From positions 112,888 to 176,887 of IMG/VR virus record IMGVR_UViG_3300028833_000067: a stretch of 64,000 bases of DNA; one strand, given 5' to 3'. A program made the position numbers and the translations under genes. Below are positions 27,394 to 59,853 of the stretch, one piece after another. Position 1 is the first letter of the stretch. Each line of letters starts with the position of its first letter. The notes beneath the pieces are model-generated. The model worked only from the letters and a program-made list of their open reading frames with translations. It was not told the DNA's origin and did no database searches. The DNA is from a virus. Its lineage: Duplodnaviria > Caudoviricetes.

Positions 27394-27467
27394 ATTTACA
27401 GAAGATGAGGAAAGGAACTCACCTTCTATAAAATAATTTTTTTCATTACATAAGGAGGTAATGAGAT

Positions 27468-27841: not shown

Positions 27842-28104
27842 TGCCCTGCGGTCCGTGGCGGACAGACGGTCTCTAGGCTTAATTGGAGCCTTATATGGGG
27901 ACATATAAGTGAAAACGTCGCTAAGTCGGTGAAGGCTTAACTGCTAATACCGAGCAAGGGATAAATCCTATGTGTAGAGACTTTACACGACGCATCTAGA
28001 ACAGATGAAGATAAAGTCCAGACCACAATACGAAAGTAATGTGATATAGAAAACCGTGGCCTCTGAAGCAAACGAAGTTGGTTCGATTCCAACCAGGGCA
28101 GCCA
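27842..28104 (+). tRNA. Amber suppressor tRNA(CUA), presumably Gln; exons 27842-27874 and 28050-28104
   Basis: Acceptor TGCCCTG/CAGGGCA + G-CCA; D arm GTCC/GGAC; spliced anticodon arm ACGGT-CTCTAAA-ACCGT; T arm GTTGG-TTCGATT-CCAAC. Confidence 0.85.
27875..28049 (+). ncRNA. Group I intron (compact, 175 nt, IC3-like) in the suppressor tRNA anticodon
   Basis: P1 CTCT/GGAG with U.G at the splice site; P2 CTTATATG/CATATAAG; P3 CGTCG/CGACG; P4 TCGGT/ACCGA; P7 GACTTT/AAAGTC within GTAGAGACT and AAGATAAAGTCC; P8 CATCT/AGATG; P9 with GAAA loop; terminal G 28049. Confidence 0.88.
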
Positions 28105-31960: not shown

Positions 31961-32566
31961 ATGAGTAGAGCAGAAGATGTAAGTAATTATCGTAGAAGAA
32001 GAAAACAAAATCTTATTGAGGTTTTGGGTGGAAAATGTTAGATATGTGGTTTTGATTTATTTGCAGATGCATTAGAATTTCATCATGAAGACCCGACTAA
32101 AAAAGATTATGGAATTTCTTCAAAAGGGACTTGCCATGATATTGAAACTGACCTGAATGAAGTAAAAAAATGTTTTTTATTGTGTGCAAATTGTCATAGA
32201 GGAGTTCATAGTGGTTATTATGATGCTCCTACAGAACATATATTCAATAATGAATTAGCGCAAAGATTAATTAATGAACGCAATGATAAAATGACTGCTA
32301 AATTAAATTATTGTATTGATTGTCATTGTCAAATAGACTCTACAGCAACTCGCTGTCCAAGTTGTGCAGCAAAAGCCAGACGAGTTTGTGAAAGACCTTC
32401 ACGAGAAGAATTAAAGAAATTAATTCGCACATTACCATTTACTCAAATTGGAGAACATTTTGGCGTTAGAGATAATACAATACGTAAATGGTGTGATAAT
32501 ATGAATTTACCAAAAACTAAAAAAGAAATTAATTCTTACTCTGATGAAGAATGGGAAAAAATTTAA
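31961..32566 (+). CDS. HNH endonuclease with Zn-ribbon/HTH C-terminus
   Basis: AGGAGG RBS; KC(TAG=Q)ICG...LEFHH...LLCANCHRGVH. Confidence 0.8.
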
Positions 32567-32569
32567 TTT

Positions 32570-32598
32570 TTGACTTTCTTACAAAAATATACTATAAT
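32570..32598 (+). promoter_or_regulatory. sigmaA-type promoter
   Basis: TTGACT-N17-TATAAT. Confidence 0.6.
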
Positions 32599-32617: not shown

Positions 32618-32735
32618 GGGAGATTCGCTAATCGGAATAGCACGCGGCTGGCCTGATACCAAAGAGATATAATAGGGGCAGGTCCTATATCAGACAATTA
32701 ACCGCGCCAGAGAGGTTCAACTCCTCTATCTCCCG
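32618..32735 (+). tRNA. tRNA-Asn(GTT) with a 47-nt insertion (32651-32697) in the anticodon loop
   Basis: Acceptor GGGAGAT/ATCTCCC + G73; D arm GCTA/TAGC; stem CGCGG/CCGCG; CTG|insert|TTAA; T arm AGAGG-TTCAACT-CCTCT. Confidence 0.75.
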
Positions 32736-32830
32736 CTCGTGCTTTGATGACCAAATGTAGCTTGGCAGTAAATAAACATTAATGCAGATGTGGGGTTATG
32801 ATGAAAGCCTTTACCTTAAAAGGCTATTAT

Positions 32831-33225: not shown

Positions 33226-33833
33226 TATTTTTGGTAGTATGCTAGAGCCATCGCGAGGAGAGTTATCTATAACATCCTACGTTCTACCATATGAGATGGC
33301 CACCGCCCCTGCGCTTCGGAAAGCGGTATATAAATTGGAGTAGGGCCACCCGCTATAGGGGATGGAGAAATATGTAGCTTGCGCTTTCGATGCACAGTGG
33401 CAGTAGCAAGTAAAAAATAGACCATCTGGCCGTGCAATAGAGCAGTAAAGTGTACGTTAAAGAATCGGATTCTGCTATGGGTTGTGTTTAATGAGCACGA
33501 TCTTCGTATATACTACGATCTCCAGTATGAGGAAAAACTACCGTTTGGATTGGTTGTAAGGCCATGGTCCACCCCTACGCCGGACACCGCTGAGACGTGC
33601 AGCAACCGCGCCGTAGATGAGTTTCTCTTGACTCTGGGATGTTCCCTAAATAAGAGCGGGATGAATATCCCGCAAATGGTCCCCGAGACAGTAAAGCTGG
33701 CGTTTCTAGAGCGCAAAGATAGTTCGCATACGGGGTTACATACTATCATAAGTACAGGAGCGATGAGCAGTTATTTCGCTTAATATTCGACTAGACCATG
33801 GACGCATGGCGGACAAATCCTGTATTTTTCTAT

Positions 33834-38313: not shown

Positions 38314-38459
38314 AGGAGAATCATATAACGGTAGTATGGCGGTCTCCGGGGCGATAGTGTAAAGAACACACTAGGAAAGCAAGGACCTAGTAATTGAAGG
38401 GCAGTACTGAGGCGCTCCACCAAAAACCGTTCGTCCTGGTTCAAATCCAGGCTCTCTTG
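38314..38459 (+). tRNA. tRNA-Trp(CCA) interrupted by a 75-nt tRNA-like insert (38348-38422)
   Basis: AGGAGAA/CTCTCTT + G73; GCGGT-CTCC|insert|AAA-ACCGT; T arm CCTGG-TTCAAAT-CCAGG. Confidence 0.78.
38348..38422 (+). ncRNA. Nested degenerate tRNA-Ala-like RNA
   Basis: GGGGCG/CGCTCC-A-CCA with G3.U70; D arm GTGT/ACAC; stem CTAGG/CCTAG; weak T stem with GGCAGTA loop. Confidence 0.7.
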
Positions 38460-42573: not shown

Positions 42574-42631
42574 ATTTGACTTTTAACTAAAATTAATGTA
42601 TAATTTTTATATAAGAAAAGGAGTTGATATT

Positions 42632-43099
42632 ATGCCGATTTTGTATATTCTCTGCGGACCGAGTGGATGCGGAAAAACTACCTGGGCTATGAATTTTATG
42701 AAAGAACATGATAATATTCATTATGTATCTCGGGATGAAATTCGTTTTGAATTGGTAAAACCCGATGAGAGTTATTTTTCGCGCGAAAAAGAAGTCTTTC
42801 GGTGCTTTGCTAATACCATTCGGCATACTCTTGTTGATGGCTTTGATTGTATTGCCGACGCCACTCACTTAAATGAATTTTCGCGTCGTAAGCTAACACA
42901 AGCAATTGATATGTATTTTAAAGATTATGAAATTGTTTATGTTAGTTTTAATGTAAGCGCAGATACATGTATTGAACATAACGCCAATCGTGAAGGCAGG
43001 GCGAATGTGCCTGAAACTGTAATTCGTAATATGTGCCGTGATTTTAGAACTCCTTCTATTGAAGAAGATGAACGTGTGAAAGAGGTAATTGAAGTATGA
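42632..43099 (+). CDS. P-loop polynucleotide kinase (AAA_33, Pnk-like)
   Basis: GPSGCGKTT, SRDEIR, DATHL...R motifs; promoter 42576-42604. Confidence 0.8.
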   Translation: MPILYILCGPSGCGKTTWAMNFMKEHDNIHYVSRDEIRFELVKPDESYFSREKEVFRCFANTIRHTLVDGFDCIADATHLNEFSRRKLTQAIDMYFKDYEIVYVSFNVSADTCIEHNANREGRANVPETVIRNMCRDFRTPSIEEDERVKEVIEV

Positions 43100-43716
43100 G
43101 CGAGATTTTCTTCACGAGTGATACTCATTTCGGGCACCAGCCCGAGTTCCTTTGGAAGCCTAGAGGTTTTTCTTCTGTAGAAGAAATGGATGAAGCCATT
43201 ATTGAAAATTGGAATAAAGTAGTAAAACAAGGAGATATAGTATATCATCTTGGAGATACTATGCTCAACGATAATGTACATGGACTTGAATGTTTCAAGC
43301 GGTTAAATGGACAGATTTTTCTTATCTACGGAAACCATGATACTAATGCTAGAAATAATTTGCTTTTTACAGATGACCGTACCATACATAAAATGCTCGG
43401 CGGCTGGTATGCTTGGCTTATTAAATATGGTAAACTTTCCATTTACATGAGCCACTATCCCACGCTTACAAGCAATTATGATCAGAAACACTTCAGCCAG
43501 CATGTACTGAGCCTTCACGGGCACACTCATCAGAAAACAAATTGGCTTGACCCGAAAAACCCCTTTCTTTATCATGTTGGCCTAGACTCCCATAATAATA
43601 CGCCAGTTCATATTGATGAAGTAATCACAGATATTCGTCAGCGTTGGGAAGAAATTGGGCGTCTGCCAGTACCAGTTCAGCCGCAAGATACTTATCCATA
43701 TACTTCTATTATTTGA
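43096..43716 (+). CDS. Calcineurin-like metallophosphoesterase
   Basis: SDTHFGH, LGD, GNHD, HGHTH. Confidence 0.88.
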   Translation: MSEIFFTSDTHFGHQPEFLWKPRGFSSVEEMDEAIIENWNKVVKQGDIVYHLGDTMLNDNVHGLECFKRLNGQIFLIYGNHDTNARNNLLFTDDRTIHKMLGGWYAWLIKYGKLSIYMSHYPTLTSNYDQKHFSQHVLSLHGHTHQKTNWLDPKNPFLYHVGLDSHNNTPVHIDEVITDIRQRWEEIGRLPVPVQPQDTYPYTSII

Positions 43717-49806: not shown

Positions 49807-51024
49807 GTGAAAAATATGTTGAACGCAGCTTCTGAGCGCGAACTTGCTTATGTAGTAATTGTAGATGGAATTGAACCTATTCCTGGTTATGACCGCGTAG
49901 AACACGCAATTGTTGGCGGCTGGCGTGTAATTGTGCAGAAAGGCCAGTTTAAAGTGGGCGATCCCGCTATTTATTTTGAAATTGATTCTCGTGTTCCTTC
50001 TGATAAGGAATGTTTTGCTTTCCTTGAGAAGCGCAATTATAAAGTTAAGACTTTGAAGATGTGCAAAACTATTTCTCAGGGCTTGCTTATGCATCCCTCT
50101 GATTTTGGTTGGCATGTTACTCTTCAGGGTGAAATTGATGACGGGGAGCAGATTCATACTCCTGTAGATGAATCGCGCTTTCTTACTAAGCAGTTGGGTG
50201 TAACTTATGCAGATGAAGAAGATAATGCTCGTAAGGCTGCACCAGTTGATAAGTATAAGAAAATGGCTCAGCGGCATGCAGTTATCTTTAAAAAGCCTTG
50301 GGCACGTTGGATGATGCGTCGTGAATGGGGCCGTAAGATTATGTTTTTCTTCTTTGGTAAGAAGAAAGATAAGAAGAATGGATGGCCTTCTTGGGTACAA
50401 AAAACAGATGAAGAGAGAATAGAGAATATGCCTTTTGTGCTTCAGAATAAGCATCCTTGGATAGTTACTGAGAAATGCGATGGTTCCAGCACTACTTTCA
50501 CCATGAAACGTAGAAAGTTCAAAAAGAAAGATTTCTACGTTTGTTCTCGGAATGTTTGTTTTGATAGCGTAGATAAGCCTTGTTATTATGATACTAACAT
50601 TTATTGGGAAATGGCACAGAAATATCATATGTTTGAAGTTCTTTCACAGCTCCTTGATATTTTACCCGCGGCTGAATGGGTGACTATTCAGGGCGAAACT
50701 TATGGTGAAGGAGTTCAGCGTAATACTTATGGACTTAATGGTCATGATTTTATGGCTTTTAACTTGATTACTTCTGATAAAGGCCGCTGGAATAGTTGTG
50801 ATATGAAGGAGATCCTTGAAAAGGGTTACAATATTCCTTGCGTGCCTATTCTCAATGATAATTATATCCTTCCTGATACTGTAGAAGAACTTCGTGAATA
50901 TGTAAATAGCCAGCCTTCAGTTATTGATGGTGAGATGAAAGAAGGTATTGTATGCCGGTCTCCTGATGGTATTCATTCTTTCAAGTGCGTCTCTCCAGAG
51001 TACCTACTCAAATATCATAGCTAA
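49807..51024 (+). CDS. ATP-dependent RNA ligase (DRB0094/Rnl2-like, N-terminal OB domain)
   Basis: IEPIPGYDRVE; KTDEERIEN; motif I TEKCDGSS; QGETYG; FMAFN; EGIV; FKCVSPEYLL. Confidence 0.85.
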   Translation: MKNMLNAASERELAYVVIVDGIEPIPGYDRVEHAIVGGWRVIVQKGQFKVGDPAIYFEIDSRVPSDKECFAFLEKRNYKVKTLKMCKTISQGLLMHPSDFGWHVTLQGEIDDGEQIHTPVDESRFLTKQLGVTYADEEDNARKAAPVDKYKKMAQRHAVIFKKPWARWMMRREWGRKIMFFFFGKKKDKKNGWPSWVQKTDEERIENMPFVLQNKHPWIVTEKCDGSSTTFTMKRRKFKKKDFYVCSRNVCFDSVDKPCYYDTNIYWEMAQKYHMFEVLSQLLDILPAAEWVTIQGETYGEGVQRNTYGLNGHDFMAFNLITSDKGRWNSCDMKEILEKGYNIPCVPILNDNYILPDTVEELREYVNSQPSVIDGEMKEGIVCRSPDGIHSFKCVSPEYLLKYHS

Positions 51025-58030: not shown

Positions 58031-58636
58031 ATGGATTTAGAAGAACTATTTGGTGAGGTAGAAAAATTTTCTTTTGACCCTCAAACATATCAGTATTTTC
58101 ATCAATTATTTAATAAGCGTACAATTATATTAAATGATTATGTATGCGATGAAACGGTTGAAAAAGTATTTCTACCGCTACGTGAATTTGAAATGGATGA
58201 TTCTACTGAACCGGTTACTCTTATTTTAAATTCTGCGGGTGGTAGTGTTACAAATGGATTCTACCTCGCTCAATATATTTCACAATATTCCAAACCTTTA
58301 AATATTATTGTACCCGGTATGGCCGCGAGTATGGCAGGAATTATTCTTGCAGGAGGCGGTAAAAACGAAAATGTAATTAGATATGGCTTTCCTGCTTCTT
58401 ATGTTCTACTTCATGATGGATATGTAGCATTAGAATCTAGCGAAGCTCGTACTGCAGATGATATTATGGAATTTAATAAAGGAGTAGATGCAGATATTCG
58501 TGAATTTATACTCACTAATACTAACATTACTCCTGAAGAATATGATAGCCACGCTCGTAAGCAATGGTTCTTGAAGGCTCATGAATGTGTTAAAGTTGGC
58601 CTTTTAGATCATATTTATGGAGTTGATGACAAATGA
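58031..58636 (+). CDS. clpP: ClpP-like protease
   Basis: LNSAGGSV, GMAASMA, LLHDG, GLLDHI. Confidence 0.8.
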   Translation: MDLEELFGEVEKFSFDPQTYQYFHQLFNKRTIILNDYVCDETVEKVFLPLREFEMDDSTEPVTLILNSAGGSVTNGFYLAQYISQYSKPLNIIVPGMAASMAGIILAGGGKNENVIRYGFPASYVLLHDGYVALESSEARTADDIMEFNKGVDADIREFILTNTNITPEEYDSHARKQWFLKAHECVKVGLLDHIYGVDDK

Positions 58637-59853
58637 TTACTCACTGGGCAGATACATCTGCTATATTGCATCAAAATCTTGAAGGAAGCCATATTGCAAT
58701 TAGTCCTTTAACTTTATCCGAATTAGAACATATAAAAACTAACGAGTATAATTTAGAAATTAAGTATCAAGCACGAGAAGCGATTAGAAAAATTATAGAA
58801 AATAATGTATATACGACAGTAATAGTTGATAATAAAAAGATTGATAAACTATTAAAAAAGTATAATTTTCTAAGCAACATTAATGATCATAGGATTTTAC
58901 TCGCGGCAGAAGTTACTGCAATAGAATAGGGCAATAATATTGTTTTTATGACTAGTGATGCAGCACAATATACTTTTGCATTACAAATGCCGCACCTTAC
59001 GGCGGAATATACCTCTGCAAATAAAAAAGAAGATGAGCACTGGTGCGGCTGGGCTAAATATTATCCTACTGAACAAGAAATGGCGATGCTTTATACTGAC
59101 TCGAAAATTAATATACTAAAAGCTAAAACAAATGAATTTTGTAAAATATATGAAGGCCCAGAATTAAAAGATATATTATTTTGGACTGGGAGCGAATATC
59201 GCCCGCTAAAATATAAAGATTTACATTCTGACTTTCTTGGACGAACAATTTCTCCTTTAAATCTTGAGCAAAAAATGGCTTTTGATTTACTACAAAATCC
59301 TAATATTCCAGTTAAGCTTCTATCTGGAGTGCCCGGTGGAGGCAAAGATTTCCTTATGTTTTTACATGCTTGGGAACTTATCCAACGAGGTAAAAAAGAT
59401 AAAATTATTTTTATTCGTAATTTAGTACCTTTTAAAGATGCTCCAGAAATAGGATTCCTACAAGGATCATTACAGGAGAAAATTGCTTGGGGATTAGGCC
59501 CCATTGAAAGTATATTAGGGGAAGAAGGCTTGTATATAGCCCAACAAGCAGGTCAAATTGAAGCTGTGAATTTGGGTTTTATTCGCGGCTGTAGTTGGGA
59601 TAATGCTATTCTATATGTATCTGAAGGACAGAATATCACTGGCGGCGGCTATAAACTACTTGTCAGTCGTTGTGGTAAAAATTCTGAACTTTGGGTTAAT
59701 GGGGATACTTATTAGACAGATGGGAAAAAGTTTGAAAGTAATAATGGCCTTGAAAGATTAGTTAAATCGCTCGCTGGTAATAAATTATTTGGTAGTGTTA
59801 AATTATTAAAGACAGAACGTTCCGAAATTGCGGAATTAGCTTCTATAATATAA
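58633..59853 (+). CDS. phoH: PIN-PhoH (PhoH2-type) ATPase/RNase
   Basis: PIN DTS...NDHRIL; GVPGGGKD, IGFLQG, FIRGCS, EGQN, GDTY(Q)TD, RSEIA; joined through two TAG. Confidence 0.85.

Follow-up and report, generated by a model that had tools for sequence, protein, structure and literature searches.

A tRNA-shaped insert in the anticodon of the tRNA-Asn gene of a TAG-recoded rumen phage

How can a phage obtain a working tRNA from a gene whose anticodon is interrupted by an insert that itself resembles part of a tRNA? The question is raised by the tRNA-Asn(GUU) gene at positions 32618-32735 of a 64,000-nt stretch of phage DNA (the window), in which G34 and U35 are separated by exactly 47 nt (32651-32697). 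The window is the final 64 kb of a 176,887-bp record, a single contig judged 98% complete by CheckV, and has a G+C content of 36%; the tRNA-Asn gene, its promoter, the tRNA-Trp insert, and the HNH endonuclease and RNA end-healing and sealing genes described below lie on the + strand.

The split tRNA-Asn gene and its splice register

The gene was not detected by plain ARAGORN, which makes no intron search, or by Rfam. With the intron search (-i), ARAGORN predicted a tRNA at 32618-32736 with a 47-nt anticodon-loop insert at 32652-32698 and called it Thr-GGT, which is one base off the true register. The original prediction, made without database searches, had read the gene as a tRNA-Asn interrupted in its anticodon, with removal of 32651-32697 restoring CTGTTAA (CUGUUAA in the RNA), and had proposed a comparison of orthologues with and without the insert. 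That comparison was run and confirmed the register: an exon search in IMG/VR recovered an intronless tRNA-Asn(GTT) gene (L001:3922-3993) that is identical to the window exons at 71/71 positions, with flanks that are 77-90% identical. Because only excision of 32651-32697 reproduces the L001 sequence, both the predicted junction (G34/U35) and the Asn identity are right. Exon 1 (32618-32650, positions 1-34, 33/33 identical to L001) comprises the acceptor 5' strand, the D arm, the anticodon stem 5' strand, and C32, U33, and G34. Exon 2 (32698-32735, 38/38 identical) comprises U35, U36, A37, and A38, the anticodon stem 3' strand, the variable loop, the T arm, the acceptor 3' strand, and the discriminator, a G73 that fits Asn identity. 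When spliced in silico, the gene gives a cloverleaf with a GUU anticodon and an ARAGORN score of 117.1 as tRNA-Asn. About 20 nt 5' of the tRNA lies a putative sigma-70-type promoter (TTGACT-17 nt-TATAAT, 32570-32598), which matches the consensus at 11/12 positions and rests on that match only. Because the promoters are of the sigma-70 type, the host is presumably bacterial.

The late (virion) genes of the phage, at 1-27361, are open only when TAG is read as sense. The longest TAG-readthrough frame has 2,177 codons, and 250 in-frame TAGs occur across the long frames, with up to 13-19 in a single late gene. TAG is nearly missing from the replication and RNA-repair genes (41000-62700), and such split usage between gene sets is known for other recoded phages. 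The tRNA array spans 27.8-40.8 kb, with 13 tRNAs found by plain ARAGORN and two added by Rfam. Rfam also matched a cow-rumen-4 RNA at 27398-27464 (57.6 bits, above the gathering score) and a cow-rumen-3 RNA at 33479-33573 (79.2 bits, just under the gathering score of 86.7), so that both orphan motifs sit within the phage tRNA array. The array further holds an amber-suppressor tRNA(CUA) at 27842-28104, which has a long variable arm and a 175-nt insert in its anticodon loop; relatives carry versions with inserts of 173-177 nt as well as intronless versions, and no Rfam group I match was obtained for the 175-nt insert at E <= 1. Directly 3' of the tRNA-Asn gene is an element of ~95 nt (32736-32830) that is 96.8% identical in the metagenome contigs L002 and L003 and 97.8% identical in L013, with adjoining DNA far more diverged, and that is missing from L001. 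It holds two UGAUGA motifs and one GGCAGUA; by energy, it shows no significant folding. GGCAGUA is present in intergenic RNAs of the tRNA array at 32764, 33399, and 36205.

To place the gene among its relatives, loci were recovered by the exon searches and by a protein-anchored search, the latter giving 70 loci from rumen phages of roughly 130-190 kb. Within these loci, the G34/U35 site of tRNA-Asn is occupied by 11 distinct insert alleles of 46-91 nt, which yield 11 different spliced tRNA-Asn sequences. Intron-plus Asn genes spliced in silico score 110-120 with ARAGORN, and intronless Asn genes score 103-124. The window gene is the sole tRNA-Asn gene of the 98%-complete genome, in which Asn accounts for 6.5% of codons in long frames, and no second tRNA-Asn gene was found in the locus for 13 of the 15 loci with an Asn insert. 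Between the window and L002, a coding sequence upstream of the tRNA gene (an HNH endonuclease gene, see below) is 83.8% identical and the spacer is 90.2% identical, against 71/71 positions in the exons and 46/47 in the intron; roughly 7 exon changes would be expected at the divergence of the spacer, a rough Poisson estimate made without a formal test. The exons of a further relative, L006, show two differences, one in the D region that lengthens its stem and one in the variable loop, neither of which breaks a pair. Decaying exons had been named beforehand as the sign of a pseudogene, and on the DNA side this sign is absent, the exons being intact and more conserved than their flanks. On this indirect evidence of exon conservation, and without RNA data, the insert is probably removed from the RNA to give a working tRNA-Asn.

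The fold of the insert and the class to which it belongs

The 47-nt insert begins with the 5' strand of an acceptor-like helix (32651-32657), which pairs with 32689-32695 in 6/7 positions, the exception being a C2.A mismatch. A single-stranded linker of 14 nt (32658-32671) occupies the place of the D and anticodon arms and is 13-21 nt long among the aligned Asn insert alleles. It is followed by a T-arm-like hairpin (32672-32688), in which a 5-bp stem (32672-32676 with 32684-32688) closes a 7-nt loop, GGCAGGU (32677-32683), and then by the acceptor-like 3' strand and, in place of the NCCA or NCAA of sister alleles, a 2-nt tail, AA (32696-32697). The fold proposed at the outset, GCCTGAT/ATCAGAC with 6 of 7 pairs followed by ATAGG-GGCAGGT-CCTAT and AA, was exact. 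Among the features considered for the class to which such an insert would belong, the window copy shows three: it interrupts the anticodon loop of an otherwise intact tRNA that has an intronless orthologue, it begins at base +1 of the acceptor-like helix, and its T-arm-like hairpin is stacked directly on that helix. It departs from two others, since the loop GGCAGGU is not a canonical T-loop (UUCRANY) and the tail AA lacks a discriminator followed by CCA. Sister Asn alleles have the tails ACCA, GCCA, ACAA, and GCAA and the loops UGCAAGU or UUCAACU; the lineage of the window insert ends in AA. The word "reduced", by which the insert had been described, is therefore apt for the window copy.

The folding energy of the insert is not unusual (z = -0.21 alone and z = -1.6 for the pre-tRNA) and was therefore not used as evidence; the reality of the fold rests on covariation. 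For this purpose, the 10 distinct short Asn alleles were aligned and counted against a two-helix model. Pairing holds in 96.7% of cells, and changes on both sides are seen at 6 of the 12 pairs (22 cells). Helix 1, the acceptor-like helix, is paired in 94.3% of cells and helix 2, the T-arm-like helix, in 100%, with 3 pairs changed on both sides in each. The covariation score was reached by 0 of 500 shuffles, and controls in which the 3' partners were slid by one to three columns gave only 19-42% paired cells and 0-2 two-sided pairs. L002 and L003 share the window insert; in one of them the loop-closing G.U has become G-C, and in the outer helix of L003 both sides of a pair have changed, from G-C to A-U. 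A U.G wobble is found at pair 2-71 in 6 alleles, and since this pair would be a C.A mismatch on the opposite strand, the fold appears to be selected in the sense-strand RNA. Bases G1, U2, and G5-A6-U7-A8 are conserved in the alignment of the Asn alleles. No Rfam family was matched by the insert at gathering thresholds or at E <= 1, no DNA match was found in the INPHARED phage collection, and an exact search of IMG/VR with the insert core gave no match.

Inserts of the same shape were then sought in other tRNA genes. ARAGORN -i predicted 82 intron-bearing genes among 1,160 tRNAs across all loci, and the register was validated for 23 distinct short inserts (43-105 nt), for which comparison with an intronless orthologue showed no more than 10 mismatches. 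The genes concerned encode the tRNAs for Asn, Gln, Glu, Leu, Lys, Pro, Trp, and Val, and the insertion points range from 32/33 to 36/37 and are nearly always inside the anticodon. All 23 start at nucleotide 1 of a terminal helix with at least 6/7 pairs, a property seen in 7% of shuffled inserts. A CCA end is frequent and not universal, as it is present in just 12 of the 23; the remaining tails are ACAA, AA, AC, and similar. There is no clear link between the tail of an insert (CCA or not) and whether the outer tRNA encodes CCA (table 7/5/3/8). By a stricter script, most of the 23 were also found to have, immediately 5' of the 3' strand, a hairpin with a perfectly paired stem of 4-6 bp and a loop of 7 nt; the loops are either T-loop-like (UUCAACU, UUCGAUU, UGCAAGU) or GGCAGYR, and longer inserts carry additional D-arm-like parts.

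The window contains a second member of the class, a tRNA-like intron of 75 nt (38348-38422, G1...ACCA) in tRNA-Trp(CCA) at 38314-38459. It lies between C35 and A36, starts with GGGGCG, and ends with CGCUCC-ACCA, and the gene without it is scored 108 by ARAGORN. This split gene was missed by ARAGORN -i in the window, and its copy in L004 was called 'Leu-CAA'. A GGCAG loop common to the Asn and Trp inserts had been noticed at the outset; it is present in the latter at 38400 and recurs as GGCAGYR at the T-loop position of many related inserts. On a 4-6-bp stem, the GGCAGYR loop replaces the T-loop in a large subset (e.g. L012:11274-11407, L015:4378-4526, and L046:11781-11901, as well as window positions 32677 and 38400), and it may be bound by a specific factor. 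R1, a covariance model derived from the Asn inserts, also recognises the inserts of tRNA-Gln, tRNA-Glu, and tRNA-Leu, with lower scores. Its other matches were weak and confined to the 3' halves of genuine tRNA-Leu genes, and R1 found no free-standing minihelix copies in 1.2 Mb of related DNA. The tRNA-Trp insert, the family inserts, and the R1 matches thus all support the earlier inference of a shared class of tRNA-shaped introns, and we are highly confident that the window insert is a real, structured member of it. The window copy could nevertheless be a decaying, splicing-defective member, given that it lacks CCA, has a C.A mismatch in its helix, and carries the non-canonical loop GGCAGGU.

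Possible removal of the insert and competing explanations

With some reserve, we lean towards a genuine tRNA-shaped mini-intron in the only tRNA-Asn(GUU) of a TAG-recoded ~177-kb rumen phage, one that is excised, most likely by a protein or RNP, and resealed; splicing is here inferred without RNA data. In the pathway envisaged, the pre-tRNA would be transcribed from its own promoter, and the tRNA-like top half of the insert would recruit RNase P for a precise cut at the 5' junction, leaving a 3'-OH on exon 1 and a 5'-phosphate on the intron. An acceptor/T-arm stack is a minimal RNase P substrate, and the sole invariant feature of the inserts is a 5' junction located at base +1 of this stack. 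A second, unidentified nuclease would cut the 3' junction 2-4 nt beyond the helix, and the exon halves would be kept together by the tRNA body. The anticodon loop would then be sealed by an Rnl5-type ligase of the phage; should the ends require healing, the kinase and phosphatase encoded nearby would provide it. The assignment of the 5' cut to RNase P and of sealing to the phage ligase is a tentative inference that falls short of being probable, as the enzymes remain untested.

Candidates for the later steps are encoded downstream. An ATP-dependent RNA ligase (49807-51024) with an N-terminal OB fold and a PF09414 domain, which resembles the Naegleria gruberi RNA ligase (Rnl5; 5cot, E = 1.2e-30), is the candidate exon sealer. 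A polynucleotide-kinase-like P-loop protein (42596-43099) and a metallophosphoesterase (43096-43716) are candidate RNA end-healing enzymes, and the RNA-repair gene set also holds a DUF2828/DUF7788 protein and an RlaP nucleotidyltransferase. Of 20 near-complete relatives, 12 have a PF09414 ligase scoring above the cut-off; minihelix introns are found in 9 of these versus 1 of the 8 relatives lacking such a ligase (one-sided Fisher test, ~0.01). This association is suggestive only, because ancestry was uncorrected, 20-kb loci rather than whole genomes were sampled, and L067 is a counter-example. L067:3519-3676 (= L068) carries an 81-nt, apparently complete tRNA-like insert in a tRNA-Ile-like gene, the register of which was not validated; no PF09414, RtcB, or Rnl1 ligase was detected in L067, with the qualification that the control for the Rnl1 search matched nowhere. 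The healing and sealing enzymes are, moreover, sufficiently explained by defence against anticodon nucleases.

The 3' junction cannot be assigned to any known enzyme. The 3' junctions lie 2-4 nt past the helix, and the tails preceding them vary (ACCA, GCCA, ACAA, GCAA, AA, AC), so that no fixed ruler runs from helix to junction. RNase Z, cutting after the discriminator, was rejected as the general 3' nuclease because its boundary does not fit and 1-3 extra bases would be left. An after-CCA cutter, RNase III, or an unrecognised phage nuclease are all possible. Near the RNA-repair genes lies a PIN-domain/PhoH-like ATPase fusion (58633-59853), a candidate RNA helicase-nuclease and, untested as it is, a candidate for the missing 3' nuclease. 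The phage was found to lack EndA (PF01974), RtcB, an RNase Z-type MBL protein, and a CCA-adding enzyme.

The gap at the 3' junction, where no splicing enzyme has been identified, is one of several observations that would also fit an insert that is never removed. A selfish, mobile tRNA-derived element may have killed a dispensable tRNA-Asn, its fold being needed by the element itself, e.g. for recognition during mobility, and may have spread by recombination or by homing with the adjacent HNH endonuclease. The latter is encoded by a free-standing homing-endonuclease gene (31961-32566) that ends 51 nt upstream of the tRNA-Asn gene. The gene is present in the window, L002, L006, and L029 and absent from the intronless L001 and L026, and L003 has a different HNH-like gene at the same place. 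More broadly, an HNH homologue is found at most 100 nt upstream of 7 of 15 intron-plus and 2 of 49 intronless Asn genes (Fisher test, 3e-4, with ancestry uncorrected). For several tRNA-Asn sequences, intron-plus and intron-minus alleles occur with identical exons (0 mismatches), which also fits recent insertion. Phage tRNAs are, in addition, often dispensable, and the tail and loop of the window copy are degenerate.

Several results nevertheless speak against a dead gene. In the intron-bearing lineage, both exons and intron are far more conserved than the linked HNH gene, and all 11 of the different spliced tRNA-Asn sequences keep full cloverleaf scores. The intron-bearing gene is nearly always the sole Asn gene in its locus, the G.U wobbles show selection on sense-strand RNA and not on DNA, and many intron-bearing alleles have no nearby HNH gene. 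Insertion without removal is accordingly regarded as unlikely, if still to be reckoned with. Within the mini-intron reading, too, the insert behaves at the DNA level as a mobile or easily lost element, linked in the window lineage to the upstream HNH endonuclease, whose target it may interrupt. HNH homologues or fragments were also observed 3-70 nt upstream of tRNA genes for Gln, Lys, Pro, Thr, and Asn (L008, L013, L014, L036, L042, L047, L052, L069, and other loci), and in this phage family free-standing homing endonucleases seem to use tRNA genes generally as landing sites.

The conservation of the fold and of parts of the insert sequence could alternatively mean that the minihelix is itself the product, with the tRNA gene serving as a processing scaffold from which a small tRNA-like RNA is released. 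Such an RNA might be a regulator, or it might serve as a decoy, either for anticodon nucleases or for defence proteins that bind tRNA, and re-joining of the tRNA halves would then be secondary or would serve as a timing switch for the supply of tRNA-Asn. The boundaries of the insert do correspond to the mature ends of a tRNA-like RNA, many copies are CCA-ended, and the recurrent GGCAGYR loop suggests a specific binding partner. The element is found only inside anticodon loops, however, with the 1.2 Mb of related DNA yielding no free-standing copies; its tails are degenerate in the window lineage, and the perfect exons are left unexplained. A released product is hence considered a fairly slim prospect.

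Excision by RNase III followed by ligation, as for the intervening sequences of bacterial 23S rRNA, would account for the ends required, since RNase III leaves 5'-phosphate and 3'-OH ends that can be sealed by an ATP-dependent ligase. RNase III would act on one irregular helix of ~20 bp, to which the anticodon stem, two pairs of the loop, and the 12-bp stack of the intron would all contribute, and would leave a 2-nt 3' overhang. In the window copy the two cuts are indeed staggered across the helix by exactly 2 nt, the 3' cut lying beyond the 5' one. This stagger is not matched by the 4-nt tails (NCCA) of most family members, both cuts would be placed at the duplex edge and not within the duplex, and the likeness to a T arm is left unexplained, all of which makes RNase III excision improbable.

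In favour of self-splicing (group I or II), of a small ribozyme that cleaves itself, or of an archaeal-type bulge-helix-bulge intron, it can be said that other tRNAs of the phage family carry group-I-sized inserts (173-364 nt). Such readings are nonetheless hardly credible here, because, as had been argued from its size at the outset, 47 nt is too small for group I or II, the 5' exon ends in G and not U, the intron ends in A and not G and has no GUGYG start, and neither RF00028 nor any other Rfam family, known small ribozymes included, was matched at E <= 1. A bulge-helix-bulge, which requires a pair of 3-nt bulges with a 4-bp helix between them at the splice sites, was rejected because the start of exon 2 (UUAAC) cannot pair with the start of the intron (GCCUG) and because EndA is missing from the phage. 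On sequence grounds, a hammerhead and a box C/D RNA were likewise excluded.

Relation to known tRNA introns and significance

Inserts of a comparable kind have been seen before. The tRNAs of Lak megaphages carry 'enigmatic', highly conserved introns, one of which 'itself may encode a tRNA'; intron-free alleles were also reported, and the actual point of excision lay one base off the software call (Devoto et al. 2019, PMC6784885). A 2026 survey of jumbo phages likewise states that such introns 'could encode another tRNA' (PMC13037316). Neither report gives an architecture rule, a covariation analysis, or a mechanism, and targeted literature searches found no paper with a mechanism or architecture rule for tRNA-shaped introns. 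The present insert resembles the Lak introns in lying in an anticodon loop in a stop-recoded phage, in segregating as alleles with and without the intron, and in the one-base offset of the software. It differs in being a 47-nt top-half minihelix without CCA and with a GGCAGGU loop, and it belongs to a family of 177-kb rumen phages unrelated in size to the Lak phages. The window insert is thus a new, reduced variant (no CCA, GGCAGGU) of a kind that has been seen, unexplained, in the literature.

Comparison with the protein-spliced introns of archaea and eukaryotes (EndA/Sen with RtcB or Trl1) shows a similar mixture. Those introns, too, are short, do not self-splice, and lie in the anticodon loop, and the shared logic of removal by an endonuclease and an RNA ligase likely applies here as well. 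The window insert, unlike them, is tRNA-shaped, has no bulge-helix-bulge, and is not at site 37/38, and the phage has neither EndA nor RtcB and presumably a bacterial host. With the group I introns of bacterial, plastid, and phage tRNAs, it shares its location in the gene, mobility, sporadic occurrence, and association with homing endonucleases. A group I intron, however, requires a P3-P9 catalytic core of roughly 200 nt, with U before the 5' splice site and G as the last nucleotide, and the window insert meets none of these requirements.

Two phage systems are also instructive. Phage T4 repairs the anticodon loop cut by PrrC with Pnkp and Rnl1, and a comparable set of kinase/phosphatase and ligase is encoded here 10-18 kb downstream of the tRNA-Asn gene; damage repair is nevertheless not the programmed removal of an intron, and the window ligase is Rnl5-like (Naegleria type) and not Rnl1. 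In collaborative homing, free-standing homing endonucleases are paired with introns that lack an endonuclease, as for cyanophage psbA and in the T-even phages. The HNH gene adjoining tRNA-Asn and the segregation of intron-plus and intron-minus alleles with the endonuclease are consistent with this arrangement, from which the present case departs in that many intron-plus alleles have no HNH gene and the HNH cleavage site is unknown.

A bolder reading is a third, so far undemonstrated route of tRNA splicing in phages of bacteria, in which a top-half disguise, RNase P, an unknown nuclease, and a phage repair ligase would remove introns that are mobile among tRNA genes, partly with HNH endonucleases. 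This proposal is conjectural and less likely than not. The tRNA-shaped introns may themselves have arisen from tRNA fragments ligated into nuclease-cut anticodon loops. What the relatives provide is a comparative set of 10 alleles of one intron, with intronless twins and tails from ACCA down to AA, which defines the features that a splicing machinery could read and makes the question testable in vitro. Standard tRNA finders miss or misname such genes (Thr for Asn), and tRNA inventories and code predictions for recoded phages are distorted as a result.

Bacteria and their viruses are not known to possess tRNA introns other than self-splicing ones, and we know of no view of phage RNA-repair ligases so far other than as counter-defence. 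If tRNA-shaped, non-ribozyme inserts of 40-120 nt are widespread, they would imply enzyme-dependent splicing in the bacterial world, and the pathway, if true, would link the mimicry of RNase P substrates with phage RNA-repair ligases and with mobility by homing endonucleases.
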